Origin: a phage
Reading direction: 5' to 3' (one strand)
Assembly: GCA_018015315.1 (NCBI GenBank)
Contig: GCA_018015315.1_3629.1
DNA length: 64,000 nt
Part shown: in pieces, positions 7,821 to 55,539 of the stretch
Position numbering within the stretch: position 1 is the first letter of the stretch
Layout of the letters: each line of letters opens with the position of its first letter
The notes under the pieces: generated by a model
What the model saw: only the letters and a program-made list of their open reading frames with translations
What the model was told of the DNA's origin: nothing
Databases searched by the model: none
Translations under genes and position numbers: made by a program

Positions 7821-10800
7821 TTAACGAGAGAAAGTTGCATAAGCTTCAAGATCATACTGCTGATCACCAGGAAGCATGGCACCTATGGAGCCAAACCCCA
7901 TGACCCTGCCTTCTACTGCCAACTGCAGTCTGAACCCTACCCATCCGGAACTTCTTGCAGCCTCGATGTTATCGCTATACCCGAAAGTAGCAAGCTCGTC
8001 AACTCCAGATCCGAACAGCAACTGGATCTGATTTCTCGGAAGCCCTATAATTTCAGGAATATATGCTCCGAAGTACACCATTTGCCCTACTTTAGGACCG
8101 CTGCCATACTCCATCGGTCTGCTTGCAGAGAAAGTCTTCATTCCTGAAGTCCCTGCCGGATTTGGGTATGCCCCGTTTGTTGCTCTGCCTATCCACATTC
8201 TCCACTGTGGTGTCATCTGTTTGACAGTGAAAGATGTTGAAGACGTCTTGCGGCCTGCATCATCCGTAACTACAAACGTTATGTTGACATTACCGGGCGC
8301 TTTAAATGTTACCAGTCCTGTGTTAGCATCAACAGTTGCTATGCCAGTATTACTACTTTCCCAAGTCTTTCTGATCCCTGTTACGTTGGAAGGGGTGATA
8401 GAGGGTTCCTGCATCTGCAGTTTACCGCCAACAATACCTATGCCATTGCCAGGGTTATACAACACCCCAACCTCATCTACAATATTCCCAGCCTTGAGGC
8501 TGTATTTTCTTGAGAAGTTGTAGGTTCCGTTATAAGTATGTGTCCCTGAGAATGTGACATCGGCCTTGCCGTGGGAGATGCAAACCAAAGCATACTTCCT
8601 GTCAGGCAATGTAGCCCCGGTCTCTGGGTGAGTTTTACCCACTTGGAACACGCCAGGATCGGTAGAGTCGTGGCTATCCCTGATAGAGCTTGGACCACCC
8701 ATTAACTGAGACAAGCAATCCCTTACCCACGTCCAGTTATTATCACTGGAGAAGTCAACAGTCAAATCAAACACAACCCACTCGTTAGGCTTCCAAACAG
8801 GTGTTGTAATAGACTTGCCTACGCCACCACCCTGAAGGGTAGATGACTGCTCAGTGATCAATGCTGCATAAGCCAAAGTCCCTAAACGCAAGGTCTGGCT
8901 TGCGGTTCTCACCACCTTAGAATCGGCATCTGTGAAGTTGTTGATAACCTGGAAGGTGCCATAAGTGTTTTTACAGGTGATTCTTGCATTCAGTGTGTCA
9001 ATCTTTCTCACATCTGCCATGGCAGTGTTAGACACAGAGAAGTCAGAAGCTTTGGCTGAGTTTGCTGCAACAACCGGAACAACGTTAAGAGTTGCGTTGA
9101 ACTGGCAAGCAGGAGTAACCAGCAGCCTGTTATCACCTATTTGCTTCCATGAAACACTTTGAACAGGTAGATTCCATTTGATACCTGAGAAAACTTTAGC
9201 AACCCTTGGTCCCAGAGCTCCAGTCCTGTTGTCTTTACAACACATAGACATGGTGATCGTTGACGGAGTGGCCTGACCAAACAATTGCTGTGCTTTTGCA
9301 GAAGACATGGTGTAGAAATTGTCCTTAACAAACTCATCAGCTGCTAACGATCCGTCAGATTTCCACCACTGCACCTGATACCCTGTCTTATCCCAGCCCC
9401 CAACCTGCTTCAAGTCTTCCCAAGAGATTTCCAGATCTCCCGTGGTAGGATTGATTGCAGCAGTCCCTGGTGTGCCGGATGACCACAATGGAATATCGAA
9501 CCACGCTGGTTTAACAGATTGCACTGCGTTAGGACCTATTGCAGCAGCAAGTTGTTGGCCCATCAATACGCGAGCATCTTTTACCAGACCCCACTCAATC
9601 ATGGATCCAGAGTAACCTTCTTTCTTGTAGGCCGAGGATCCGTTTAAGTGGATAAGTCTGCTTGTGCCGAAGTTATACGCTCCACCACCGTTGTCGTCTG
9701 CAAAGTTGTACACAATTCTATCCCTGGTGTCTTTCCACGCTCTACCACCTATTTCATAGTTGTGGTCATAGCAACGTTGCAGTGTTGTCCAGCAAATGAT
9801 AGCCATCCTTCTGCCATTGCTGAAGCCGAAGGCATTATCGTTAAGCTCTCTCCACAAATAGCAGTTGGTAGTCCACATGGCTCTGTGGATGTTAAACCAG
9901 TTGACAGATCTTGCAGCATTGTTGTAGTCGGTTCCCTCTAGAGTAGGCCACACTGCATTAACCAGCATGTCTTCTGTCCCCGCATCCATCAGGAATCCTC
10001 TTACCTTTTTACCCATTCCTACTCTGTCTTTAGCAATCCAGCTGCCAAACAGTCTCAGTTTGGGGCCAATAACAGTTTCCTCCGGATGCTCAAGAGAAAC
10101 ATATTTCAAGTGTACTGTAGGATCACCATAGGTGCCATCGCAGACACTTTTGTGCATGTTTTCACCAAGGTCCAGACGAATACCTGTAAGAGTTTTTGTG
10201 TTGTCTGTGAGTTTGTCTGTCAAGTCAAACTCATACCACCACCATCCAGCACCTAACAATACCTTCTTACAACGCTGTGCATCTGTATCAGATATTCTCT
10301 TATCCCCTGCAAAAGGCGAATCTGCAAATTGGTAGTGCAGAGCAATTTCAAACGGGTGTGTTGATGTTCCGTTTTCAGCAGGAACTTGCTTACCTATCAG
10401 GTCGCACTTAATGATCATCACGACACGTCTGTATCCATTGGCTACCGGAACGTCGAACGGATACTTCTCTCCGTTCATATTTGCATGGACAGACGAGAAG
10501 ACTATATACGGGTCAACAGCATTACCCAGGGTTTCAGGACCAGGGATCATTTTGTATTTCTTGACTTGCCCCATAATATAGTCGCTGCCATAGGTTGCAG
10601 CCTCGAAGCAAGATCCCCCGTTAGGTAGTTCCCCCGGACCCCAGAAAAATGCGCCATAACAGTTATAAAACCACTTGTTAGGGTCGTATTTGTTCTTGAA
10701 GGTCTGAACCTCGTTGGCCTGTTTTGTCAAGAAAACCTGCGTATCTGTGAAGATTGCAGGGTTTACTCTCGCCTGACGCGGAGGGTAACCTGTAGTCTGG

Positions 10801-13457
10801 TTAAACCACTGATTACAAGAGATATCTCTCATATAGTCATAATCGGAATATTTGTTTGCATCTTCGTTCCAACACAGGTTCAGGTTGGTGCCGCCCATGC
10901 ACACAATATATTCTGTGACATATTTATCACTTCTGGTTGGGATTCCTATGAACCATCTGTTAACAGGCTCGTCCCAAGCTGTCCGCTCATCTTTAACGCA
11001 GATAGCGATCCAGTCATGTGTTCCTGTTTTCTTGCACACATCGCGCTTCATACCATAATAAAACTCTTTAGTATTTGGCTCAGGTGCATTTATCAGGTAA
11101 CTCCACGCCTGATTTGCATAGGTTCCATTGGTGCGAGGATCATGGTCAAAGGCATACATGATGATCCTTTCTCCACCAAGATGTTCACCGAGGGTAACTT
11201 TGATGTTTACATCACCGTAACCGTTACGAACTATATCCATATTGTCAATAGAGATGCCTCTAGGGGTGTAGGCAATTTTCAGAGAACTATCTTCACTGGT
11301 ACCACCCAGAGTAATACCTATATTGTTTGTTGTTCCATCAACATATTTTACTGTAGCTTCCCAACGTATCCCGAAATACCCTGCGTTGTGGCTAACAACT
11401 TTCAGTGTGCGAGCACCTGGGTGAGGCTTACCAGGATCAGGCCATGGATCAGCATGCTCGTGCACTGTTAACGATGTTCCGTTCTGCTCGTTAACCTGCA
11501 GCATCTTCCCGCCTTTGCCGTTAGGGTTGAACTCCCACAAGGCTTGTGTTTTCACAAGATTGTCATAGATACTGCGTCTCTGGTCGTAGATCTCCTGGGT
11601 CACATCATACGTGGTAGATCCGGCATCTTGCCTGTGAAGCCTAACCATATATGCTGTATCGCTTTCTGGAGCAGGCTGAGAGCCGTTAAGCCCAAAGTAT
11701 ACAGTATCGTTTACATGGAACTGTTTCTTCCTGCCAACAGTGTGCCATTTGCCGTCTGACGGATATGCAGGAACTATAATGTTCCAGTTTAAGTTTCGTG
11801 TGGTGTGGGTTCTTCCAGCGCCATGTTTATCATGATAGGTGATCTTGACAGAATACAGACCGCGTCTGTTGATGTTACGGTTATGCTGGGTAACCACAAT
11901 CTCGTTAGCACCGCCATGGTTCCAGTTAGTAGAGAACTGATAGTTTGCATCTGTAACAACAGTACCTGCAGCGTTCACGAGCTCAATCTTGTCAATAATG
12001 AACGTAGCACCCTCCGGTTGAGGTTTCAACTTCATTTTGACAGTGTCGCCAATGTATATATTGCTAACACTGCTTACACCATTGACATCAAAGATGTCTT
12101 CGATACTCCAGCTATCTACCGGAACATTTTTATACCAATTCTCAGGAATCTCTGTGAACCCTTGGCTGTTAAGTCTGCCGCCGAACAGGTTATTAGATCC
12201 TGAAAAACTACCACGTGGTATTCCTGACCACCAAAGCTTTCCATTTACCACACAGAATGTGCCTAAGAAACCTTCCCTGTGGATCCCTTGAAAATAAACG
12301 CTTTCTGTCCAGCTTACTGGCTCTGTCTGTTCAACAAACTTAGCTGTTGCCAGCGCTCTGTAATGAATAAAATTGGCCCTAGGATTATTATTAGCAGATT
12401 GAGCACCAATATCGTTACACAGGTTTCTGGAGAAACCACGGTACTGTTTTGTACCATTATTGAAGAAAATTCCACTAGTCCCGTACCCGCGAGCCATAAT
12501 TACTTCATGGGTATAGGTGATGTTAAGGCTTCTCCACGTGTCGTCACCCCAAACATCCTGACCATAAAACACATTAACAAGTTGTTGGTCATCAGGTTTG
12601 TGCATCCTTTCTGTGGCTATAATTGCCCCGTTAGGACCACACATAAACCCTTTCCACTCCTCATCTGCAGGAATGCCTCTCAAATCGTTACGAGTAATCT
12701 GCACAGGAGGCCAAACAAGGTCGTTTCTATTGTTATTTCTCAGAAAGTCGTATCCAGCAATCCAGAAACCTCTAGGACCACCGAAAATAACAGAGTTGTC
12801 ATGCACCTCGCAGTTGATGCTTGGGTTTTTCCAAGGTCCTGTTTCAGGATTTTCCGATGTCTCACCAATCTTTACAGGGGTTGCATGCTGATTTTTATCT
12901 ACATGCAAAGATCCGTAGGTGTTGTTACCAGATCCATATAGGTTAAGTATGCCAGTGCCTTCTGCCTCTGCAATAACCCAGACAGTGTTGTTAATACCAC
13001 CCATCACCTCAATAAGGCGCTCTGGGTGGGTGTCAAGGTGCAACCCTTTAACAATCTGTTCCGGAAGAGGTGTCCACTCGTTTACGCAAACATCATTACC
13101 GCCTGCCGCAGTGGATCCGATAAGACCTGCAGTGCAGCCGATGTAGAAAAACTGGTTATCAAAAGTCCGGATCACAAACGCACGGTCTGCTCTCCACACA
13201 TGATCAACATTCCAGGCTGTTTCGCTTGGGTAGTTTATAGGGTTACGATCCCCAGTGCGACACTCCCCGAACTTGTTATAGCCCGTAATATTAAGCTGAC
13301 CATCATCAAAAAGTATAGCTAAGCTATTTACATAGGATACTGTGTTGCTTGTACCATCACTGTTGTCTATTGGGTATGACAGAACAGCAAGTTCCTTAAT
13401 TCCACCCCTCTTATCGAGGAAATGACGACCAAGTTTTAGCAAAGGGATTGGAAGCAT
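7821..13457 (-). CDS. giant tail fiber / virion-associated protein (1878 aa)
   Basis: 5.6 kb ORF at the distal end of the tail-fiber block; bacterial Ig-like segment near the C-terminus; GGAG RBS upstream. Confidence 0.65.
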   Translation of the reverse strand: MLPIPLLKLGRHFLDKRGGIKELAVLSYPIDNSDGTSNTVSYVNSLAILFDDGQLNITGYNKFGECRTGDRNPINYPSETAWNVDHVWRADRAFVIRTFDNQFFYIGCTAGLIGSTAAGGNDVCVNEWTPLPEQIVKGLHLDTHPERLIEVMGGINNTVWVIAEAEGTGILNLYGSGNNTYGSLHVDKNQHATPVKIGETSENPETGPWKNPSINCEVHDNSVIFGGPRGFWIAGYDFLRNNNRNDLVWPPVQITRNDLRGIPADEEWKGFMCGPNGAIIATERMHKPDDQQLVNVFYGQDVWGDDTWRSLNITYTHEVIMARGYGTSGIFFNNGTKQYRGFSRNLCNDIGAQSANNNPRANFIHYRALATAKFVEQTEPVSWTESVYFQGIHREGFLGTFCVVNGKLWWSGIPRGSFSGSNNLFGGRLNSQGFTEIPENWYKNVPVDSWSIEDIFDVNGVSSVSNIYIGDTVKMKLKPQPEGATFIIDKIELVNAAGTVVTDANYQFSTNWNHGGANEIVVTQHNRNINRRGLYSVKITYHDKHGAGRTHTTRNLNWNIIVPAYPSDGKWHTVGRKKQFHVNDTVYFGLNGSQPAPESDTAYMVRLHRQDAGSTTYDVTQEIYDQRRSIYDNLVKTQALWEFNPNGKGGKMLQVNEQNGTSLTVHEHADPWPDPGKPHPGARTLKVVSHNAGYFGIRWEATVKYVDGTTNNIGITLGGTSEDSSLKIAYTPRGISIDNMDIVRNGYGDVNIKVTLGEHLGGERIIMYAFDHDPRTNGTYANQAWSYLINAPEPNTKEFYYGMKRDVCKKTGTHDWIAICVKDERTAWDEPVNRWFIGIPTRSDKYVTEYIVCMGGTNLNLCWNEDANKYSDYDYMRDISCNQWFNQTTGYPPRQARVNPAIFTDTQVFLTKQANEVQTFKNKYDPNKWFYNCYGAFFWGPGELPNGGSCFEAATYGSDYIMGQVKKYKMIPGPETLGNAVDPYIVFSSVHANMNGEKYPFDVPVANGYRRVVMIIKCDLIGKQVPAENGTSTHPFEIALHYQFADSPFAGDKRISDTDAQRCKKVLLGAGWWWYEFDLTDKLTDNTKTLTGIRLDLGENMHKSVCDGTYGDPTVHLKYVSLEHPEETVIGPKLRLFGSWIAKDRVGMGKKVRGFLMDAGTEDMLVNAVWPTLEGTDYNNAARSVNWFNIHRAMWTTNCYLWRELNDNAFGFSNGRRMAIICWTTLQRCYDHNYEIGGRAWKDTRDRIVYNFADDNGGGAYNFGTSRLIHLNGSSAYKKEGYSGSMIEWGLVKDARVLMGQQLAAAIGPNAVQSVKPAWFDIPLWSSGTPGTAAINPTTGDLEISWEDLKQVGGWDKTGYQVQWWKSDGSLAADEFVKDNFYTMSSAKAQQLFGQATPSTITMSMCCKDNRTGALGPRVAKVFSGIKWNLPVQSVSWKQIGDNRLLVTPACQFNATLNVVPVVAANSAKASDFSVSNTAMADVRKIDTLNARITCKNTYGTFQVINNFTDADSKVVRTASQTLRLGTLAYAALITEQSSTLQGGGVGKSITTPVWKPNEWVVFDLTVDFSSDNNWTWVRDCLSQLMGGPSSIRDSHDSTDPGVFQVGKTHPETGATLPDRKYALVCISHGKADVTFSGTHTYNGTYNFSRKYSLKAGNIVDEVGVLYNPGNGIGIVGGKLQMQEPSITPSNVTGIRKTWESSNTGIATVDANTGLVTFKAPGNVNITFVVTDDAGRKTSSTSFTVKQMTPQWRMWIGRATNGAYPNPAGTSGMKTFSASRPMEYGSGPKVGQMVYFGAYIPEIIGLPRNQIQLLFGSGVDELATFGYSDNIEAARSSGWVGFRLQLAVEGRVMGFGSIGAMLPGDQQYDLEAYATFSR

Positions 13458-13469
13458 TGTGTTCTCCAG

Positions 13470-13497
13470 ATAAGAAAACCGCCCCGTCAGGAGCGGT
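13470..13497 (-). terminator. rho-independent terminator after the 581-aa fiber gene
   Basis: 7-bp stem with one G-U pair, UGAC loop, then UUUUCUUAU on the minus-strand transcript. Confidence 0.5.
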
Positions 13498-13505
13498 TAG
13501 ATATA

Positions 13506-15251
13506 TTAACGTTGTGCAATTACTACGTCTACAATATCACCAACACCACAATACGTTAATTGCAGCAAGGTAACACTGTTAGCCTTGTTGTTAATAACAG
13601 GTGTTGCCGACAGGATAGCATACTTATCGTGCAAAGTCACGTTGTGACCTACAGCATCCTGAATGACATAGATAACTGCAGTGAATGGATAAGGTTTATC
13701 TTCCGCTGATGTCCCAGGCCACTGACCTATTGTAAAATCCCCTTTAGCGTGGACAACATACATACTGGCCTGCCCGTTAGGTGTCCATGTCCCACTGGAC
13801 GCGTCAACCTCCTCTAAATCAAAATCTACCTTTCCTGCGTGGAAAGTAGGGGCAGTAATGGTTTTACCCGCCTCAATTTCTTGAGAGGTGGTTATCTTAC
13901 CGCTGGAGTTAATGCCATTACAAACAAAGTTGACATTAGAGAAGTCTGGCAGCCACCCAGTCACTGTGCCGGATATTTCAAGGTTGTGAAGGTAGGTGGT
14001 TCCCGTACCTGCTGCGTTTAAACTAACATCTCCATTTACCTGCAAGTTTCGGGTAACGTTGCAGTTTTCAGAGTTTGCAGTTGTTGCAGTTAAAGTGGTG
14101 GTTGTCAGCTCGGTAATTGTACCTTTATTAGCTGTAAGCCCTTCTCCTTCAAAAGTTGCACGCTCATTAACTCTTAAGGTATTCAGAGCTATGTTTTGGA
14201 TAGAGGCCGTACCTCGAATAACTACAGACCCGCCAACCTCCAAATCGCCATTTATCAATGCATCACCAGTGCTTTCAATATAGCTAGGGTAGATCATGGT
14301 GCCATCGACAGAGTATGTTATCCCTGTAACGGTACCTGTCACCTCAAGGTTCTTAACCCTGGTGGTCCCATCGACCTGCAATGTCGGTTCGGTTGCTGCC
14401 TTCATGGCATTACCACGAATGTACACGTAGTCAAAAAAGTTATTACCCAGACCATCAAAATGCACATCGTTATTATTAGCCACTGGTTTCCCAGAAGTTA
14501 TAGTGTCAGCTATAACCCTGTGGGTGGACACTTCATGAGGTTGCAGCTCTGTACTTCTCCAGTCTGCATGCTTAGGATCGCTCCACGCAAAAGTAAGTGT
14601 AGAAGTATTTGCCGTGAGGATTAGATTCCTAAAGCGTGCAGTAGAATCTGCCCCATTAACAGGTCCATGTAAGGTAAGGGTGCCACCAACTATGGTGTTA
14701 GCAAGTTCTGTAAGACCTTTTACCACCAAAGACCCTACAGTAACCTTCATCCCCTCCATAGCTTCAAATATGCTATCTACATAGTCAACAACAAACTCTG
14801 TGTTTGCTATAGACTCAGACTTATCGTCCATTGGAGGCGTAGGTACTCGCGGGTCACCTTCGAACCTTGGGCTGTTAAGTTTTGCGTAGTATTTTGCCAT
14901 TACTGCAGAGTCGGTATATAATCTCCAGTTTGGAGATTGTGAAGGATCTGCTGGCATTCTAACCGGGTTAGATTTTGATGCTGCGGGAGCGTACCACCAC
15001 TGAGGGCCTGTGTCCCCTTTAAACTCATATAGCTGGTTAAAAACTGTTGTGGATGCACCATACGCCCAAGGGATCGGCGGCGTTTTAAAATAAAGGGTGT
15101 CAAGCATGGCTTTTCGTACCGTAGGGATGGTGGTCCCATCCTCTACGACAACTTCATCCACAGCGTTACCGTTGACAATCAGGTGCAAACGTTCAGAATC
15201 AACAATTACTTGATCTACCGCCTGCTCAAAGCTTGTCATGTCTTGCGCCAT
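13506..15251 (-). CDS. tail fiber protein
   Basis: 581 aa; Thr/Gly/Asn-rich repetitive beta-strand-like sequence typical of fibers; sits in the fiber gene block. Confidence 0.6.
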   Translation of the reverse strand: MAQDMTSFEQAVDQVIVDSERLHLIVNGNAVDEVVVEDGTTIPTVRKAMLDTLYFKTPPIPWAYGASTTVFNQLYEFKGDTGPQWWYAPAASKSNPVRMPADPSQSPNWRLYTDSAVMAKYYAKLNSPRFEGDPRVPTPPMDDKSESIANTEFVVDYVDSIFEAMEGMKVTVGSLVVKGLTELANTIVGGTLTLHGPVNGADSTARFRNLILTANTSTLTFAWSDPKHADWRSTELQPHEVSTHRVIADTITSGKPVANNNDVHFDGLGNNFFDYVYIRGNAMKAATEPTLQVDGTTRVKNLEVTGTVTGITYSVDGTMIYPSYIESTGDALINGDLEVGGSVVIRGTASIQNIALNTLRVNERATFEGEGLTANKGTITELTTTTLTATTANSENCNVTRNLQVNGDVSLNAAGTGTTYLHNLEISGTVTGWLPDFSNVNFVCNGINSSGKITTSQEIEAGKTITAPTFHAGKVDFDLEEVDASSGTWTPNGQASMYVVHAKGDFTIGQWPGTSAEDKPYPFTAVIYVIQDAVGHNVTLHDKYAILSATPVINNKANSVTLLQLTYCGVGDIVDVVIAQR

Positions 15252-15260
15252 GATTTCTCC

Positions 15261-15527
15261 TTAAGCTTTTTGCTCTTCGTTTTTAACGTGGTCAGGGTGC
15301 TGGCAACCCCACCGGAGCGAGATGAATTTGCTAATAAGCTGGGGGCAGGCTACTGAAGGTGCATATATCCACGCATACCATTCAGGAAGCGTATCATTAT
15401 ACCCCATATGAATAAACACCCCAGTCATCACCGCCATGCCTATGTTCGACCATAGCTTAGATTGGGATACTTTCGTAGGGTCATCAGATGCCGCAACCAG
15501 TCCCCATAAAAACTGAGTTAGTTTCAT
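15261..15527 (-). CDS. small membrane protein (candidate holin-like or fiber-associated)
   Basis: 88 aa; hydrophobic segments (LWSNIGMAVMTGVFIHMGY, WYAWIYAPSVA) and charged C-terminal tail (HVKNEEQKA). Confidence 0.4.
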   Translation of the reverse strand: MKLTQFLWGLVAASDDPTKVSQSKLWSNIGMAVMTGVFIHMGYNDTLPEWYAWIYAPSVACPQLISKFISLRWGCQHPDHVKNEEQKA

Positions 15528-15538
15528 TTACCCTCTTT

Positions 15539-16585
15539 TTAAGCATAAGATATAGTGATCCATTGACCATTTACAAGTTTTTGGATAGCACCTGTCCAGT
15601 AGTCACCTTGATAAGGGTGTTTATAAGCGTAGTTACCAGAGCACATCACATGTCCAGGGTAGACTCTTGACTCTCTGTAGGTGGTTTTGAAACGGTTTGC
15701 TATCCTTACATCATCAACCCCTCTGCTAGGCATAGGAATAGTAAGGTTACCACTACTGTCTGCGCCGTTACCATTTACCCTGCGGACCACGTTTCTTCCA
15801 CCAACTGTTGCATATTGGCCCCTGACGGTTTCATCGTTACAATCAACTCTTCCACCTATTTGAGCGCTTCCGCAGGATTGTTGTCCATTAACAGTGGCTC
15901 TTGGTATAGTAACTGCATTGGCATTTGCAGAGGAACTTTTTGCATCGTTGCATTCAAGATTTCCTTGGATAGCCAGTCTTGCACGGTTGGCAGTTATAGC
16001 ATTGAGCTTCATAGCCGAAAACACAGGATGCCCACCAGAAGGTTGAAATCTCCAACGGAACCCGTCTATTTGGTGAGAAGGATCATCAAGGTCTGTGCCG
16101 TCAGCACCGCCGATGTTGTCCATAATCCAGAAGTCCATAGTCGTCTTGTCTGGAGTTATGGTGGTATATATTGCCGCATTGTCTGTTGACGCAGATGCAA
16201 ACTCGATTCTTTGAAGACCTAAAGTTTGAGTCTGAGTCATTATGTCTCCAGACTTGTCAACATACAGATCGTCCATTTCTTCAGGCGAGTATACATTGAG
16301 AACTTGACGTGCAGCAGCTTTGTCTGGAACGTCTGCTAGATTATTAGTGACCCTTAAGAATCTATTGTCCCATCCTGGGACAACATCCTCTGTTAAATGC
16401 TTTAACCACGCAGAAAGCATGTGAAGTTCAAAGTTAACAACTTCACATGCCACTCTTTGTGTCATATCCCAACCTTTCAATCTCTCTTCTTTTTTTGGTT
16501 GAGATTTATTCAACTCTCCCGTATTTTCAAGCACAACATCCTGATTGGCCCAAATATCAAGAGGGATAACTGGTTTAGTCATCAC
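15539..16585 (-). CDS. tail fiber protein, paralog A
   Basis: 348 aa; N-terminal region and C-terminus (QKLVNGQWITISYA) paralogous to 17597..18637; KSGDxMTQ motif like the GDTMTG motif common in phage fibers. Confidence 0.65.
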   Translation of the reverse strand: MMTKPVIPLDIWANQDVVLENTGELNKSQPKKEERLKGWDMTQRVACEVVNFELHMLSAWLKHLTEDVVPGWDNRFLRVTNNLADVPDKAAARQVLNVYSPEEMDDLYVDKSGDIMTQTQTLGLQRIEFASASTDNAAIYTTITPDKTTMDFWIMDNIGGADGTDLDDPSHQIDGFRWRFQPSGGHPVFSAMKLNAITANRARLAIQGNLECNDAKSSSANANAVTIPRATVNGQQSCGSAQIGGRVDCNDETVRGQYATVGGRNVVRRVNGNGADSSGNLTIPMPSRGVDDVRIANRFKTTYRESRVYPGHVMCSGNYAYKHPYQGDYWTGAIQKLVNGQWITISYA

Positions 16586-16671
16586 GTTCTCCTGAGAAAA
16601 TTCCTTAGGACTATTTTAACACTTTAGGGAACAAAATGCAAGAACGGAGTCCTTTCCGTCCTGACCTTTGT

Positions 16672-16986
16672 TTACCTTTTACTATGCTCTACAAGCATGT
16701 GCAAAATCTTTTGTACATCAGCTCTGATGCCGGAGACATCTGTCCTAACATCCTGCTTAAGGTCGTTAATATCGGCCTCTAGCTTGCTTAACCGAGTCTC
16801 GATAATAGAATCAAGTTTATCTTTTGTAACCATACTGTTTTTCACTAAGATGAGGTCTTTCTCCAGTTCATCCAACCTCTTGGAAATGCCTTTCCATTTG
16901 GTGTGCCACTGGTTGAAAGCCCATACACAGATCGGGACAACGGTACCCATGCAGATACCGTACAATGCCGCCAAATCCAACTCCAC
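16672..16986 (-). CDS. membrane-anchored coiled-coil protein
   Basis: 104 aa; one N-terminal hydrophobic helix (LAALYGICMGTVVPICVWAF) followed by heptad-like charged sequence. Confidence 0.4.
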   Translation of the reverse strand: MELDLAALYGICMGTVVPICVWAFNQWHTKWKGISKRLDELEKDLILVKNSMVTKDKLDSIIETRLSKLEADINDLKQDVRTDVSGIRADVQKILHMLVEHSKR

Positions 16987-16997
16987 AACACCTCCTC

Positions 16998-17582
16998 TTA
17001 GAGGGTAGGTCGCTCCGGGAAGAAAATGTCAGGGGCTTTAGATGTATCTATTTCAAGAAGTTTTACCCTGTACATTTTCAAATCTCTGATGTTACGTTTC
17101 TGGTCATCAGTAAGATCATATTCAAGGTCAATCATGTCTTGATAGGCACCAATTCTAGCAGTAGCCCAAGCAAGTTCTGTCTCTATGACACCCTCTGCCT
17201 GTTGAACAAAGAATTCATTGTCTGTGACAAATTCATCACCAACTAAACGCAAAGCGTCGTGGTGAAGCATAATGTTTTCTGGTACCTCTTCTTTTTTGGC
17301 GATAACCACACGAAGACCTGGAGCAGGCCATAGGGCATCAGGTTCTTCTGTAGATGTCTTAAGAATTCCCTTCTCGTCAACAAGTAGGAAGATACAACCA
17401 GGATTTTCTTGTCGTAATGTTCGTGACTGCACATACCAATCGCCATCATCATTACGTAAAAAATACCCAGTGTATGCGGTGTAATCCTCAACCTCTTGAG
17501 GGGTCAGCTCCTTGGTTCCCTTGTTGGGGAGGTATTCGCCAGATCCCGGTTGGTAAAGTTTAAACTCTTGAAGTATTTTCAT
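16998..17582 (-). CDS. tail fiber assembly protein (Tfa-like chaperone)
   Basis: 194 aa; C-terminus (LKMYRVKLLEIDTSKAPDIFFPERP) matches the conserved C-terminal signature of tail-fiber-assembly proteins; directly downstream of a fiber gene. Confidence 0.7.
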   Translation of the reverse strand: MKILQEFKLYQPGSGEYLPNKGTKELTPQEVEDYTAYTGYFLRNDDGDWYVQSRTLRQENPGCIFLLVDEKGILKTSTEEPDALWPAPGLRVVIAKKEEVPENIMLHHDALRLVGDEFVTDNEFFVQQAEGVIETELAWATARIGAYQDMIDLEYDLTDDQKRNIRDLKMYRVKLLEIDTSKAPDIFFPERPTL

Positions 17583-17596
17583 GCTAGTCCTCCGAT

Positions 17597-18637
17597 CTAT
17601 GCATAATTAACAGTGATCCATTGACCATTTACAAGTTTTTGTAAAGGTCCTGCCCAGTAGGTTGAACCACGCATCTCTTTTTTGTCACCGAAATGCCAAC
17701 CTGTGACAACGTAGCCGTTGCGAATTGGAGATTCGGAAACGCCGTCAACAAGTCTTGCACCGATTCTGATGTCTTGCACACCTGTCTGCGGGATAGTGAT
17801 CGTTACATCACCGTTGCCGTTAGCTGTCACTCCATTCACGGAGCGCACCACATTTCTGTTACCGACAACACAGTGCTGGCTTCTTACAACCATACTGTCA
17901 CAACTTGCACCACCATTAATATATACTGACCCAGCCGTCAACTGACTAGCCACATTACAGTTGGTGAATGTTGCTGTATTGCTGATAGTAAGGTTATTGC
18001 ACCTCATGTTATCGACAACTTCAACATTGCCTACCACTTTCAACAGCGCACGGTTAGCCGTGATCGCGTTAAGGTACATCAAAGTGAACTCTGGATTAAT
18101 ATCCGGCTGAGTTGGCTGGAATCTCCAACGAAACGCATCTACTGTAGATGTACCACCATCATCAAACGACCCAATATTATCACTTAACCCGAAGTCGAGA
18201 GTTGTCTTATCTGGGCCAATAGTTGTCTCTATCCAAGCCTTATCTGTCTCGGCAGCTTTAAAGTTGATACGTTGCAAACCCAATGGGCCTGTCATTGTAT
18301 CACCTGTAACTTTTACATACCTGGCGTCTGCCTCTTCCTTAGTAATAATCCCAAGGTTTCTACGGGCAACAGGAATGTTCAAAAGATCACTCAAGTTATT
18401 ATCACGTACCAGATAACGGCCTTCTTGAGCGGGGATCTGCTCGTCAGCAATGTATTTTGCCCAAGTTCCGAGCATATTGAAAATATAGTTAAGTTCTTCA
18501 CATGAGGGCTTTTGACCAAGATCCCAACCTTTTCTCCACAAATCATCAATCGGGCGTAGCCTGTTCTGTCTGTGGGTGTTAGGCAGAACCTGATCCTCCT
18601 CTGCCCAAATCTCTAATGGAAAACTAGGTTTTGACAT
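17597..18637 (-). CDS. tail fiber protein, paralog B
   Basis: 346 aa; VTGDTMTGPL motif; C-terminus QKLVNGQWITVNYA nearly identical to paralog A. Confidence 0.7.
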   Translation of the reverse strand: MSKPSFPLEIWAEEDQVLPNTHRQNRLRPIDDLWRKGWDLGQKPSCEELNYIFNMLGTWAKYIADEQIPAQEGRYLVRDNNLSDLLNIPVARRNLGIITKEEADARYVKVTGDTMTGPLGLQRINFKAAETDKAWIETTIGPDKTTLDFGLSDNIGSFDDGGTSTVDAFRWRFQPTQPDINPEFTLMYLNAITANRALLKVVGNVEVVDNMRCNNLTISNTATFTNCNVASQLTAGSVYINGGASCDSMVVRSQHCVVGNRNVVRSVNGVTANGNGDVTITIPQTGVQDIRIGARLVDGVSESPIRNGYVVTGWHFGDKKEMRGSTYWAGPLQKLVNGQWITVNYA

Positions 18638-18649
18638 TTTATCTCCTGA

Positions 18650-20722
18650 TTATGAGAAGTCTGGCGGGACAACATCCTCTACATACCCTTTCAGAGCAAC
18701 CTGCCCCATATGAAGCACGGTAGAATCTCTAGCGGTAACAGTGATGCTGTCAGACATTACTTGCGGATATGCCCACACATACTGTTTTACCTCAGGGTAT
18801 CTATACTCTATAGTTGCCATGTTTCCGCAAATACATCTCCATAAAAATTCTTGGTAATTCCTGGTTGGGTCGTAGCCATATACCGGAGCAAGCTCTTTAC
18901 TAGGAACGAACCCTGCAAGGTATTGTATTTCAGACGGTTGCCAACCTAACTTAACGATAGGTATGTTTACAGACTCTTTTGCCTTTTCAATACCTCCCTG
19001 CATCACCCAATCGTAGCACTCAGTGCAGAAGAAATCAAGAGCACCTGCTTCCTTTTTATATTGGTCAGCAAGGTTCAGCTTTTGCGTAAGCTCGGTTTCC
19101 ATAATGGTTGGGAAAAACAGCAAAGCTGTCATCTGAGCTGATGCAGCGTGTGCTTTTATTGCCTTTGAAATAGCAGCAATACGAGCGCCAAGCTTACCAC
19201 GACAAAATGCTACATACTTGTCGTAAACACCGCCAGTTTTAGGATCGTCAATAGTCCCAATATCTAAGGCATACTCTCCTGTCTCATCATAAAACGCCTG
19301 TTTTGTAGGGTAATCATAAATACAAGGTCTACGAGTATCGGTATTGTACCACCACCACGGTTCACCAACCTGCATAATCACTGGCAGGTTGTTTCTCATA
19401 GCGACTGATGCAAAATTCTTAAATACTGCAGTAAGGAAATTCATACCCTCTTCAATGGTTGGAGACAGGAGGTAGCTACAAGGTGTATATCCTGTTTTAG
19501 CGTAGTTATCATTCCAGTCTCTTTGGGTCCATTCCAACGGGCAGGCATCGCTGTAAAGCTCAAAACTTACAGACTGCATAACGTCGAAGTTATGTCGTTT
19601 GGCATTGTACATAAAATCATCATGCCATTTATAAGCTGCAGCGTTTAGCGCCCCTGTTCTGTTTATAGACCATTGGGTTCCTGACCATGTGTAGTCATAA
19701 TAATGACTCATACCAACATAATGGTTTATGGTTCCGGTATAGCCCAGACGCTTGATATTGTTCAACACCCTTAAAGGAGATACGTTCCACATATCGTCAT
19801 ATGCGGTGCAGATCCCAACGTCGTGCTCTTTAACCTGAATATTGTTAAGTTGCATCATTTTCCAGCCCGTGTCTGGCTGAAGCAGATCTAGGCGCAACTC
19901 ACACTCTACATTTTCCGTTCTCGGGTCTGTGCTATTACTTACCCAGTCTTTAGGCATGAGCGGTATTAAAATTCTTCTCACCTGTCGAGGATCAACACCC
20001 ATCATGTTGTTGTTCTGATCCATCCCGACGCAGTCCTCGAAATCAATATGAATCTCTGCAACATTCTTATCCTCTGAGATGCTGACAGCATATTGAGCTA
20101 AAGGAACATAGATGATTGTACCATCAACAAGGTCTACAGTCATAATCATCTTTTCAGGAGTGGAGAAGTTGCTGGCATTGGTTATTGACATTCTGAACCA
20201 AAGCTTGGTGTTTCTCATCTCATAGTGATCATCAAACCCAATACCGAAATGGTCATACTTGTCAACTGTTTCCCAAATGCACCCAGCCATACCTCCATAT
20301 GTTCTTGACACTAAACGGTTAATACAACAGTTGTCATCTGCAACAATACAGGTACTTTCAGTCTGCTGAGTGGTTGTAACCCAATATCTTGGGTGAAACA
20401 TTCTCTCCTCGACAGTATCCCAAGATATTCTGTCAAGATTCTCATCTGAAACTATTGTACATTTCGCCCTTTGTGTCCCAATCATCACCCCTTGAGATTT
20501 TGATGAAAACTCCATAAAGAAGCTTCTTGGTAACCTGTTGGGTAATTTGTCAACAATTTCCACTGGGATTTCAATACTGGTTGCCCCAACTGGGATAGTT
20601 ATATCGCCCTCAACATGATCATAATCCCTACCAGGAACGGCAGTATCCTGAACTGTGCGGTAATGAAACCGTGCAGCCATTGTAGAGTAATCACGGTAAG
20701 GTTTAAAAACAGCTGTTGCCAT
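18650..20722 (-). CDS. tail-associated protein with Calx-beta-like N-terminal segment
   Basis: 690 aa; N-terminal DYDHVEGDITIPVGATSIEIPVEIVDK resembles a Calx-beta repeat; Trp/Tyr-rich remainder suggests a carbohydrate-active fold. Confidence 0.5.
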   Translation of the reverse strand: MATAVFKPYRDYSTMAARFHYRTVQDTAVPGRDYDHVEGDITIPVGATSIEIPVEIVDKLPNRLPRSFFMEFSSKSQGVMIGTQRAKCTIVSDENLDRISWDTVEERMFHPRYWVTTTQQTESTCIVADDNCCINRLVSRTYGGMAGCIWETVDKYDHFGIGFDDHYEMRNTKLWFRMSITNASNFSTPEKMIMTVDLVDGTIIYVPLAQYAVSISEDKNVAEIHIDFEDCVGMDQNNNMMGVDPRQVRRILIPLMPKDWVSNSTDPRTENVECELRLDLLQPDTGWKMMQLNNIQVKEHDVGICTAYDDMWNVSPLRVLNNIKRLGYTGTINHYVGMSHYYDYTWSGTQWSINRTGALNAAAYKWHDDFMYNAKRHNFDVMQSVSFELYSDACPLEWTQRDWNDNYAKTGYTPCSYLLSPTIEEGMNFLTAVFKNFASVAMRNNLPVIMQVGEPWWWYNTDTRRPCIYDYPTKQAFYDETGEYALDIGTIDDPKTGGVYDKYVAFCRGKLGARIAAISKAIKAHAASAQMTALLFFPTIMETELTQKLNLADQYKKEAGALDFFCTECYDWVMQGGIEKAKESVNIPIVKLGWQPSEIQYLAGFVPSKELAPVYGYDPTRNYQEFLWRCICGNMATIEYRYPEVKQYVWAYPQVMSDSITVTARDSTVLHMGQVALKGYVEDVVPPDFS

Positions 20723-53309: not shown

Positions 53310-54857
53310 TTAGATAAAACGCTTGAACATAGAAGGTGATGAGATTGATGGAATCACACAAGGAAGTGCTACCTCCTCTTTCTCCAGGAAATTAATTGCA
53401 GAAGCTACACAGTCAGCCCAGTCGTCTTTTCTGTTAAATGTTGATCTTTCCCCGTTGAATTTTTCAAGTTCGGTCAGAAATGCTTCCAGAGTATCAGGAT
53501 GGAAACTGGATTTTACAATCCTCACCATCCCTTGTTGGGCAAGATTGGCAAAAGGTGAGAACCTTGTCAGTTTAGACTTGTTGGAAGGCATTGGGTCTTC
53601 TTCAACCCTGAACCCTTCTGCGAGCAAGGATCTGGATGAGGTTAAGAACTCACTCTTACCTGCCTGACCAGGGTCCACAGAGAATACGATTATACAATCA
53701 TCACCATCAAACTGCGCCTGTTTCCTGATGATCACATCTCGTTCACCAGCCTTTTTACAGAACTTGCCTTCCAGACCTGTGGAATACCTCCCGTCATCCA
53801 CGTTTTCAGGACAATAATCCCCTGACAGGTAATAAAATCCGTCGCTATCTTTACTTACCTTAACACTGGCGGTAAAGTCAGGAAATTTATTACCGGAAGT
53901 TCTCTCGGTTCCTGCCTTATCCCATGCCCTGCAAGATACTGATCCAAGGGGTACTCTATCGGCATCACGAAGGAAAGATCTTTGAAAATAGTTTGCACCC
54001 TCAGGCTTTGCAAACCAGTTACCATGGAGAAGCTGAGCTTTTTCCAGCTCTGGTAGACCTTCGAGGAAAGCAAGGTATTCTGGGTTGTCTCTCAAACAGA
54101 CAGGATTATCGAATATTGTTGCGCCTATGAACGAGAATGACAACGGTCTTGGCTTGATCTCCACACCCAGTCCGTTAACCGTGGTGTATTTCTCTATCAA
54201 CTCTTCCTTAGAGTCTCCCCAAATAAATTCACCGTCGCGTCGGATAAAATATCTTTTCTTACCACATTTCTCCGGATCTGGATACCCTTCATCGTCCAAC
54301 CACCATCTAACCAGTTTGGCAAGCATGTGTTCTGAATCAGGGTTACAGCTGATAACCATCCTTGATGGATACTTTGACTGAGATCGCAGACGAGACATCA
54401 GGTAGTCTATCTGCTCCCATTCGAACTGCGTGCCCTCATCGAAGCAAACCATGGTGTACTCAAGCCCCTGATGGTTAAGCTTATCTTGTACATACTCCAT
54501 GTGGCAGTATTTTACAACAGCTCCCTTTTTGCTTCTATCCCACTTGCCAGTGCTCGGATCAAACCGTGGAAAAATGAACTTATGATCCTTCTCTCTAAAC
54601 TTTGGCTTAATGTTTTCAGGCAGATCACTATAAATAGCTACTGCTTTAGGCCATAGTCCACCCTCACCTTCCAACTGCGGGGTTGTTCTTCGGAACATAA
54701 CCACAGAGCTGTGGGGGTCATCAATAATTTTAAGCGGCATCAACTGCAAGAGGAACGACTTGCCAGACCCTGCGGCACCGCCGATTACCAAAATATCTGC
54801 ATCGTTTTCGAGGATCATCTTCTGCTTTTCAGAACACGGTCCGTAAATCTTAGACAT
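53310..54857 (-). CDS. terL: terminase large subunit
   Basis: Walker A (VIGGAAGSGKS) near the N-terminus, Walker B-like hhhhDE (MVCFDEG), acidic C-terminal nuclease-like domain; 515 aa. Confidence 0.85.
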   Translation of the reverse strand: MSKIYGPCSEKQKMILENDADILVIGGAAGSGKSFLLQLMPLKIIDDPHSSVVMFRRTTPQLEGEGGLWPKAVAIYSDLPENIKPKFREKDHKFIFPRFDPSTGKWDRSKKGAVVKYCHMEYVQDKLNHQGLEYTMVCFDEGTQFEWEQIDYLMSRLRSQSKYPSRMVISCNPDSEHMLAKLVRWWLDDEGYPDPEKCGKKRYFIRRDGEFIWGDSKEELIEKYTTVNGLGVEIKPRPLSFSFIGATIFDNPVCLRDNPEYLAFLEGLPELEKAQLLHGNWFAKPEGANYFQRSFLRDADRVPLGSVSCRAWDKAGTERTSGNKFPDFTASVKVSKDSDGFYYLSGDYCPENVDDGRYSTGLEGKFCKKAGERDVIIRKQAQFDGDDCIIVFSVDPGQAGKSEFLTSSRSLLAEGFRVEEDPMPSNKSKLTRFSPFANLAQQGMVRIVKSSFHPDTLEAFLTELEKFNGERSTFNRKDDWADCVASAINFLEKEEVALPCVIPSISSPSMFKRFI

Positions 54858-55144
54858 TAACCTCTCTCCTTTGGAAACAGTGTTCTAATATAGTCTTGCA
54901 AAATGATCAATTTAGCTCTATCATTGCTACAAGACAAATTATTATCCCTCATAATGCCAGAATTTACTGCATCTGGAGCACCTTTCTTCAAAGGCATAGC
55001 TTTAGCAGGTGGTTTCATGGCACCTTCCGGGGGTTTAACAATCAACCTTCCTACATCTGGAGGGTCAATCTTGTATTCTCTCTCAACGCTGGTTGCACAC
55101 CCACATAATAACAAGCACACAATAAACAGTGTAGCAACTCTCAT
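54857..55144 (-). CDS. o-spanin (Rz1-like outer-membrane lipoprotein)
   Basis: 95 aa; signal peptide with lipobox LLLCGC; Pro-rich mature part; overlaps the i-spanin stop by 4 nt. Confidence 0.6.
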   Translation of the reverse strand: MRVATLFIVCLLLCGCATSVEREYKIDPPDVGRLIVKPPEGAMKPPAKAMPLKKGAPDAVNSGIMRDNNLSCSNDRAKLIILQDYIRTLFPKERG

Positions 55145-55539
55145 CTACCCTCCTGATTAATACTCTCATTATAAATATCTATAAGCTGATCAGGGAGTGT
55201 TGACTTCTTACCCTCAGGTGACTGGAGGTAAATAATCTGCTTTTCTTTACCTGCCTTCTCAGCCATATTTAATTTATCCTGTAGATCAGAAAGGGATTTT
55301 TCAAGGTTTTTAACCTCCTCTGCGTGGCCCATTTTAATTTTGTCGGCCTGCTTTTGTTGCTGATCAAGGATCCGTTCCCACTTTAACTCTGTTGCTGACA
55401 CACCTTCTTGGTAGGCATCATTAAGCTTAGAGTTAAACCAATACACGGCCCCAAGATAAGCTGTACCTATCGCAGCTGCAAAAACTAAACCTTTTATGAT
55501 CCCTCTATACCTGCTCAGCCATGTTAAAACTGAAATCAT
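55141..55539 (-). CDS. i-spanin (Rz-like)
   Basis: 132 aa; N-terminal TM helix (GLVFAAAIGTAYLGAVYWF) followed by coiled-coil-like charged sequence. Confidence 0.6.
   Translation of the reverse strand: MISVLTWLSRYRGIIKGLVFAAAIGTAYLGAVYWFNSKLNDAYQEGVSATELKWERILDQQQKQADKIKMGHAEEVKNLEKSLSDLQDKLNMAEKAGKEKQIIYLQSPEGKKSTLPDQLIDIYNESINQEGR

Follow-up and report, generated by a model that had tools for sequence, protein, structure and literature searches.

Canonical class II holins are small proteins with two transmembrane (TM) segments. Holin genes are not always neighbours of the endolysin gene; in T4, gene t lies after gene 38 and in T7, gene 17.5 lies after gene 17, in both cases at a distance from the endolysin and behind fibre or fibre-chaperone genes of a late structural operon. 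The spanins of T7-like and SP6-like phages are found next to the terminase. Phage Mu has a further membrane factor, gp25, a membrane-tethered cytoplasmic protein of the DUF2730 family with N-out/C-in topology and a cytoplasmic domain of some 75 aa, which is required to release the signal-anchor-release (SAR) endolysin of Mu and has been named a releasin (Chamblee et al. 2022, PMC9239132). DUF2730 was reported in transposable phages only, and the same authors noted DUF2730 types that accompany non-SAR endolysins, the role of which they left open (PMC9239132). In Shewanella LambdaSo, a 65 amino acid (aa) protein, Lcc6, works with a pinholin and a SAR endolysin (bioRxiv 10.1101/2024.01.23.576932). 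Here we describe two small genes on the minus strand of a 64,000-nucleotide (nt) stretch of phage DNA (GenBank assembly GCA_018015315.1, contig GCA_018015315.1_3629.1; referred to below as the window). The first is an 88-aa open reading frame (ORF) at 15261-15527, the orthologue of rV5 gp29 and RudolfGeigy bas52_0038, which is a candidate holin. The second is a 104-aa ORF at 16672-16986, the orthologue of rV5 gp31 and RudolfGeigy bas52_0036, which is a candidate releasin-like lysis accessory factor.

The 88-aa and 104-aa proteins are probably lysis proteins rather than fibre parts, because both families sit in the lysis gene cluster of many small Mu-like phages and prophages. From these sequence comparisons we put the chance a little above even that a holin (gp29) and an accessory factor of releasin type (gp31) have been displaced into a late tail-fibre operon. 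An earlier note on this DNA had offered three options for the pair, namely holin/antiholin-like, superinfection-exclusion or fibre-assembly membrane factors. The first is supported and sharpened by the synteny comparison, in which homologues of both proteins were found together in Mu-like endolysin-spanin cassettes. Both ORFs are real at the coordinates given above; they are annotated in the close relatives rV5 and RudolfGeigy, and each has a good Shine-Dalgarno site, GAGGG upstream of the ATG in the case of the 88-aa ORF and GAGGAGG upstream of the GTG in that of the 104-aa ORF.

The 88-aa protein matches the profile of phrog_1322 over its full length (E 2.7e-32; residues 1-87 of the 87-position profile). 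The same profile matches Ralstonia RS138 ORF27 (8.6e-23), an 80-aa protein of Pseudomonas Bise (1.2e-19) and an E. coli BUCT618 protein annotated as DUF2644 (8.6e-17). In RS138 the order is an endolysin-like gene (ORF26, transglycosylase-like), the family member (ORF27) and Rz (ORF28). In Bise an M15/VanY endolysin is followed by the family member, an Rz-like gene, more small genes and TerS, and in BUCT618 a GH108 endolysin is followed by the family member and a DUF2681 gene (an Rz-like PHROG). A scan of one genome per bacterial species with a 21-sequence subset of the family gave 50 further loci, mostly Mu-like prophages of Betaproteobacteria. A profile built from the large-myophage homologues alone picked out exactly one ORF at each locus (53 of 53, E 1e-14 to 1e-5; the next best match was 0.016).

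The neighbours of this ORF are lysis genes. Upstream, 33 of 39 are peptidoglycan hydrolases, which belong to six Pfam types (GH108 with PG_binding_3, CHAP, Amidase_2, Amidase_3, VanY and GH19). None of the 39 upstream neighbours has a hydrophobic N-terminus (signal or SAR domain), suggesting that they are soluble enzymes that need a hole-forming holin. Downstream, at least 28 of 43 match Rz-like spanin PHROGs. The spacing from the endolysin stop to the start of the family member is -4 to +12 nt in 14 loci, and on a metagenomic contig a Peptidase_M15_4 gene is followed by DUF2644. Between the endolysin and the spanin, most cassettes with a soluble endolysin show no small membrane-protein ORF other than the 88-aa-like gene. 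Judged by gene order, the 88-aa family occupies the classical holin slot in these cassettes. Small size, two membrane helices, a charged tail, predicted late expression and a gene placed between spanins and interchangeable soluble endolysins together match how a holin is described operationally.

Two other small ORFs were seen in these cassettes. In Neisseria and Kingella prophages (L039-L062) the endolysin and the 88-aa-like gene are separated by an additional ORF of 55-66 aa. Its product has a signal-like N-terminus and an extremely basic C-terminus (e.g. ...SGVAAAKRAAKKKRRK), and it is conserved across many Neisseriaceae cassettes. Ralstonia RS138 ORF30 (L010:6023-6244), in the lysis-to-terminase region, encodes a 73-aa protein of reverse build, with an N-terminal coiled coil and a C-terminal TM segment.

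The second family is found in the same cassettes. The 104-aa protein is a member of phrog_5345 (E 8e-49). Pseudomonas Bise encodes, after its Rz-like gene, a 92-aa protein (phrog_462) with a similar build of TM segment and coiled coil, and about 25 of the 50 prophage loci have a TM and coiled-coil ORF 0.5-1.4 kb downstream of the 88-aa-like gene. A hidden Markov model (HMM) of the prophage proteins was run against 504 ORFs from the window and six related phage loci, and the top seven matches were the seven proteins encoded after the Tfa gene: phAPEC8 (9.6e-8), VEcB (3.1e-6), Aeromonas (4e-4), PcCB7V (1.8e-3), PVP-SE1 (3.5e-3), the metagenomic contig L013 (0.044) and the 104-aa protein of the window (0.079). 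The next match, which is unrelated, was at 0.32. The reverse search recovered the prophage proteins at 2.4e-5 and weaker. Using hhalign, the probability among the three groups of TM and coiled-coil proteins was 67-71%, versus 0.1% for an alignment of Rz, which also has a TM segment and a coiled coil and served as the control. The groups have a common turn motif, [Y/M][A/V]TK[A/E/D][E/K]L, at the break between the two helices of the AlphaFold2 (AF2) model of the 104-aa protein.

The order at two prophage loci (L024 and L032) is endolysin, 88-aa-like gene, Rz (with Rz1), TM and coiled-coil gene, gp26-like gene and TerS. The order in Mu is lys, 23, 24, 25, 26 and 27, with 23.1 overlapping 23 (PMC9239132). 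The comparison places the TM and coiled-coil gene in the position of Mu gp25. The 104-aa protein and Mu gp25 align colinearly by BLASTP with 21% identity, although the pairwise E-value of 0.047 is weak, and hhalign against DUF2730/gp25 gave a weak probability of only 14-21%. The 104-aa protein therefore appears releasin-like in build and in the slot of its relatives but does not match DUF2730, and the sequence evidence for homology with gp25 is weak.

Near its N-terminus, at residues ~3-25, the 104-aa protein carries a strong TM segment (Kyte-Doolittle 19-residue mean 1.9), and the remainder is helical, charged and coiled-coil-like, as expected of the single-pass coiled-coil protein that had been read from the sequence at first. 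One TM domain was also found in gp31 in the rV5 paper. The acidic N-terminus (MELD) is followed by TM 3-25 and then by HTKWKGISKR, and in all homologues an acidic stretch of 4-12 N-terminal residues comes before the TM segment, which has a basic flank behind it. By the positive-inside rule the topology is predicted to be N-out/C-in. The AF2 model has helices at residues 5-50 and 55-103 (predicted local distance difference test (pLDDT) 88), which form a helix-turn-helix hairpin with an MVTK turn motif. An i-spanin identity was considered and rejected; the charge distribution is opposite to that of the genuine i-spanin at 55141-55539, and the hhalign probability against Rz is the 0.1% given above. 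No lipoprotein ORF was seen adjacent to or embedded in the 104-aa gene.

The 88-aa protein has two moderately hydrophobic segments (Kyte-Doolittle maximum 1.05 and 1.0) and a charged C-tail, HPDHVKNEEQKA. The hydrophobic segments and charged tail noted earlier are thus present, but the segments are only moderate. The family means of the two segments are 1.2 and 1.0 (72 members), and across the family the tails vary, with many D, E, K and R residues. In the AF2 model, made with 72 family sequences, helices 22-43 and 49-73 form a hairpin that follows a short N-terminal helix (mean pLDDT 79). In the 72 family members there are 3.2 and 2.9 K+R per 20 residues on the flanks versus 0.44 in the loop, which is acidic. 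The basic flanks and the K/R-poor loop predict an N-in/C-in hairpin for the family. Taken together, the model and the charge pattern suggest that the 88-aa protein is a two-helix membrane hairpin, N-in/C-in, with a charged tail. A TM domain was called by Octopus and Phobius in its homologue PVP-SE1 gp42, and some members of the family have an extra (third) N-terminal TM segment.

A profile search of 1.84 billion representative proteins gave 74 clusters (50% identity) of the 88-aa family, ranging from Neisseria prophages to 150-kb myophages; a word-index homologue search gave close relatives only. The family has the motif S-H-T-K-(F/L)-W-(S/A)-N-(I/V)-(G/A) before helix 1 and (S/A)-K-(F/W)-(L/I) at the end of helix 2. 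DUF2644 (PF10841) matched 4 of 72 scanned family representatives, at 6e-5 or weaker, and the precomputed DUF2644 hits were P0023 (49% identical to the 88-aa protein of the window), P0036, P0040 (weak) and P0041. The link of the 88-aa protein to DUF2644 would therefore be remote and transitive through these relatives. DUF2644 has no assigned function, and a literature search on 'DUF2644' gave no paper treating its biology. A search for a named Neisserial holin family found nothing relevant, the ASEC2201 'holin' paper being unrelated.

Database searches with the two window proteins gave no name. Pfam and NCBIfam scans of both gave sub-threshold coiled-coil noise only and no named holin family, and sequence searches of the PDB gave nothing meaningful. 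Foldseek of the AF2 models against BFVD found uncharacterised family members only for the 88-aa protein and no significant match for the 104-aa protein; matches labelled 'Holin' were discounted because their E-values were above 1. No database entry or paper was found that assigns a lysis role to either protein, and in the source records no 88-aa family member bears the name holin.

Compared with canonical class II holins, the 88-aa protein is similar in being small, a helical hairpin, predicted N-in/C-in and predicted to be transcribed late, in its variable charged C-tail and in having homologues in the endolysin-X-Rz slot beside soluble endolysins. It differs in its unusually low hydrophobicity, in the location of its gene at least 38 kb from the spanins and apart from the endolysin, and in matching no Pfam or NCBIfam family. 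T4 t and T7 17.5 are likened to it by gene position, as precedents for holin-gene placement only; T4 T, with one TM segment and a large periplasmic domain, is unlike the 88-aa protein. The 104-aa protein is similar to Mu gp25 in its length (about 100 aa), its N-terminal TM segment, its predicted N-out/C-in topology with almost no periplasmic part and its helical cytoplasmic domain with a central turn, and its prophage relatives sit after the spanins and before gp26-like and TerS genes. It differs in that the partner endolysin of the rV5-like phage, gp89, has no SAR domain, and in that its gene is in a large virulent myophage and not within five genes downstream of the endolysin. LambdaSo Lcc6, by its description, is a precedent for extra membrane factors in lysis.

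The spanins, which had been said to lie some 38 kb from the two small genes, are indeed at 54857-55539 on the minus strand. The i-spanin, the rV5 gp67 orthologue (55141-55539), has a basic N-terminus, a TM segment and a coiled coil, and the rV5 spanin family is described in PMC6139136. The o-spanin lipoprotein, the rV5 gp66 orthologue (54857-55144), has an LLCGC lipobox, and its gene overlaps the stop codon of the i-spanin gene. The spanin genes adjoin the terminase gene, as do those of SP6 and VP4 (PMC7344957). The endolysin gp89 of rV5 is a lambda-R-like lysozyme-family enzyme without a hydrophobic N-terminal segment or SAR domain, suggesting that rV5-like lysis still needs a holin. By rV5 synteny, gp89 would lie about 2 kb beyond the right end of the window. 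The holin of rV5-type phages has been reported as unidentifiable (PMC6658697). The endolysin neighbour rV5 gp90 was rejected as a holin, because it is acidic and looks secreted or lipoprotein-like. This gene (L067:2110-2316, outside the window) encodes 68 aa with a signal-peptide/lipoprotein-like N-terminus and has its own sigma-70-type promoter.

A number of observations weigh against a holin and a releasin-like factor at this locus. The segments of the 88-aa protein are weakly hydrophobic (maximum 1.05), and in the rV5 paper no TM domain was called in gp29 by TMHMM or Phobius; of the TM predictions, which had been proposed as a check, these thus bear out gp31 but not gp29, whereas AF2 gives a helical hairpin for gp29 and a TM domain was called in its homologue PVP-SE1 gp42. 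The 88-aa protein of the window matched nothing in the Pfam DUF2644 family even at E up to 10. DUF2730 (PF10805) was not found by HMMER in the 104-aa protein, six relatives or 21 prophage TM and coiled-coil proteins, although the Mu gp25 control scored 2.5e-13. The spanins are ~38 kb away, and tblastn with rV5 gp89 found no endolysin in the window, in agreement with what was first reported; neither small gene is near the endolysin or the spanins in this genome. The place of both genes in the tail-fibre/baseplate module is fixed over large evolutionary distances, which would fit an assembly role, and the 104-aa gene follows the Tfa gene in most lineages, though not in the metagenomic contig L013. 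In Menderavirus the 88-aa family member is alone, in the replication module. Cassette position alone leaves holin and antiholin undistinguished. Finally, rV5 gp129 has the appearance of a textbook holin and is an alternative candidate; both of its TM segments are strongly hydrophobic (Kyte-Doolittle 2.6 and 2.5), and its tail is very basic.

The last two points allow the roles within lysis to be swapped. Kropinski et al. proposed gp129 as the rV5 holin from topology alone (PMC3606486), and if gp129 is the true holin the 88-aa protein would be an antiholin or other regulator and the 104-aa protein a second regulator. The second small membrane ORF beside the 88-aa-like gene in some Neisseriaceae cassettes would be consistent with such an arrangement. 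However, gp129 is confined to the genus Vequintavirus (116 records) and was not called a holin by the BASEL annotators. The PVP-SE1, Certrevirus and phi92-like phages have no gp129; they still need a holin and they keep the 88-aa family. Moreover, the 88-aa-like gene is the only small membrane ORF seen from endolysin to spanin in most of the soluble-endolysin cassettes. We therefore consider the swapped arrangement unlikely.

The 88-aa and 104-aa genes lie in a tail-fibre cluster on the minus strand. Many Vequintavirus phages of Escherichia, among them rV5, RudolfGeigy and Murica, share 97-98% identity with the 6-kb region 13000-19000, and by this comparison the whole window is Vequintavirus, rV5-like and about 98% identical. 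At least 16 GenBank 'Campylobacter phage' records (MG0656xx, host C. jejuni) are also ~98% identical to this region; their host labels look wrong, or the preparations look contaminated. In order of transcription the cluster begins with the rV5 gp34 orthologue (18650-20722), which is followed by a short tail fibre (rV5 gp33, 17597-18637), the Caudo_TAP fibre chaperone Tfa (rV5 gp32, 16998-17582), the 104-aa gene, a second short tail fibre (rV5 gp30, 15539-16585), the 88-aa gene, the lateral fibre (rV5 gp28, 13506-15251) and the 1878-aa rV5 gp27 orthologue (7821-13457). The two genes are therefore embedded among fibre genes, as had been claimed. The two short tail fibre paralogues are reported to be 42% identical, and the Tfa gene follows only the upstream one.

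There is an 86-nt gap between the 104-aa gene and the second short tail fibre gene, and it contains two elements on the minus strand. Directly after the 104-aa gene there is a terminator-like hairpin (16641..16662) with an 8-pair stem and the tail TGCATTTTGT, which is a consensus match only. Beyond it is the predicted late promoter P030 (16598..16634), which equals the rV5 Table S4 sequence but for one base. P030 and a second late promoter, P036, are predictions from the rV5 paper and not measurements. The unit downstream of P030 consists of the short-tail-fibre paralogue, the 88-aa gene and the lateral fibre. The hairpin and P030 suggest that the 104-aa gene ends a unit begun at P036, upstream of the baseplate gene. 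Both small genes are thus predicted to be transcribed late, the 104-aa gene from P036 and the 88-aa gene from P030.

Homologues in large phages are numerous. Using tblastn, the 88-aa protein was found in 374 phage records (Vequintavirus, Seunavirus, Certrevirus, Klebsiella and Proteus relatives, phi92-/phAPEC8-like Stephanstirmvirinae and Aeromonas Plateaulakevirus) and the 104-aa protein in 224. PVP-SE1 and Certrevirus have, in this order, genes for a short fibre, Tfa, the 104-aa homologue, a multi-spanning membrane protein of ~155 aa, the 88-aa homologue and a fibre. One metagenomic relative has the 104-aa-like gene right beside the 88-aa-like gene, both 3' of the baseplate gene. In phi92-like phages a TM and coiled-coil protein is encoded after Tfa and the 88-aa homologue (phi92 gp144) before the baseplate wedge gene. 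From these gene orders the 88-aa and 104-aa families travel together in large virulent myophages.

Some neighbouring or related proteins were recorded in these genomes. The multi-spanning protein of Seunavirus and Certrevirus (152-157 aa, phrog_7451; L003:6312-6785, which is PVP-SE1 gp43, and L007:4519-4977) is annotated with four TM domains in PVP-SE1, and one record describes it as a 'serine protease'. In rV5-like phages the second short-tail-fibre paralogue, with its own late promoter, is in this slot. The phrog_7451 protein could be a third lysis-membrane component. The 'lipoprotein' label (phrog_15210) on the phi92-/phAPEC8-like proteins encoded after Tfa (L004:9933-10274 and L005:9941-10276) was rejected, as these proteins have no Cys; in build, an N-terminal TM segment with a coiled coil, they resemble the 104-aa protein. 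In Stenotrophomonas phage Moby an unannotated 88-aa family member (L012:6001-6273) is on the strand opposite to its neighbours in the DNA-replication module, with an annotated terminator after it; this setting resembles neither the tail-fibre nor the lysis-cassette one.

The position in large myophages is the basis of a different explanation, that the two proteins are membrane-anchored assembly factors, not packaged, which act with Tfa on short tail fibres or the baseplate at the inner membrane. Small coiled-coil fibre chaperones exist, e.g. T4 gp57A. Throughout Vequintavirinae, Stephanstirmvirinae and Plateaulakevirus the two genes keep to their place among fibre, Tfa and baseplate genes, which only this reading explains; predicted late co-transcription with the fibre genes is also consistent with an assembly role. 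In small Mu-like phages and prophages, however, the two families are part of the lysis cassette, which precedes the terminase genes and is remote from the tail genes, and endolysins and spanins flank the 88-aa family in the large majority of the 53 loci. Additionally, the phi92-like 88-aa homologue adjoins neither Tfa nor a short-fibre gene. The fibre-assembly option of the earlier note, drawn from position in this genome, is weakened by the homologues in lysis cassettes and by the virion data given below, and we regard an assembly role as having a small chance of being correct.

The same virion data bear on whether the proteins are minor virion components, e.g. membrane-active baseplate proteins inserted into the host envelope on infection. 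The shotgun mass spectrometry (MS) tables of rV5 contain 0 of 6 expected tryptic peptides of either protein, bearing in mind that small hydrophobic proteins are easily missed by MS. The CB7 virion proteome (26 proteins) includes CB7_31, CB7_36 and CB7_37 but CB7_32-35 are absent; by synteny with PcCB7V, we infer that these four are Tfa and three small membrane proteins. In the 2026 cryo-EM model of phi92, in which nearly all baseplate and fibre components have been built, gp144, gp148 and gp149 are absent. Absence from virions would also be expected of chaperones. In a few GenBank records homologues go under 'structural protein', 'virion structural protein' or 'tail fiber protein', but these labels look transferred from neighbouring genes. 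A virion role is the least probable of the explanations considered here.

The earlier note had also suggested superinfection exclusion, and host-takeover membrane proteins ('morons') that block entry or mask a receptor, like T5 Llp or Cor, were considered. Exclusion genes are often found beside receptor-binding genes in other phages, and the PHROGs category of phrog_1322 is 'moron, auxiliary metabolic gene and host takeover', although this category is a mere label derived from 'membrane protein'. In contrast with the Llp/Cor-type exclusion lipoproteins, neither small protein has a signal peptide or lipobox, and both genes are in predicted late units. The families are kept in phages of Escherichia, Klebsiella, Aeromonas, Ralstonia, Pseudomonas and Neisseria with unrelated receptors, and temperate phages carry both inside the late lysis operon. 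The data argue against this option, which we consider very unlikely.

With gp29 as the holin and gp31 as an accessory factor of releasin type, lysis could proceed as follows. Both proteins would be made late, together with the fibres. As an N-in/C-in helical hairpin, gp29 would build up in the inner membrane until it triggered, opening holes through which the soluble gp89 would reach the cell wall. The spanins (54.9-55.5 kb) would then disrupt the outer membrane and complete lysis. gp31, tethered by its TM segment and with its helical hairpin in the cytoplasm, may tune or assist the membrane step, acting on holin timing or triggering or on endolysin release. In this scheme the family membership, the gene neighbourhoods and the absence from virion proteomes are observed and the topologies are predicted, and we infer hole formation, lysis timing and any contact between gp29 and gp31. 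In one variant, which we consider highly speculative and improbable, the lysis genes would be kept in the fibre/chaperone operon to couple lysis to the last assembly step, as an assembly checkpoint on when large virulent myophages lyse the cell. The gp31 hairpin would then sense free short-tail-fibre/Tfa complexes or completed baseplates at the membrane and license or restrain holin triggering.

Holins and releasins are themselves known kinds of protein. The new element is that phrog_1322, with its link to DUF2644, and the TM and coiled-coil family are assigned to holin and releasin roles, which provides candidates for the missing membrane step of rV5-like lysis. Of all coliphages, the rV5-, PVP-SE1- and phi92-like ones are among those isolated most often, and therapy cocktails make use of them. 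If gp29 is a holin, a widespread DUF-type family would gain a function, hundreds of genome annotations could be corrected and the lysis timing of these phages would become open to engineering. If gp31 is a relative of the releasins, then releasin-like proteins would not be confined to transposable phages or to SAR endolysins, which would bear on the question raised by Chamblee et al. of what the non-Mu-type proteins do (PMC9239132).

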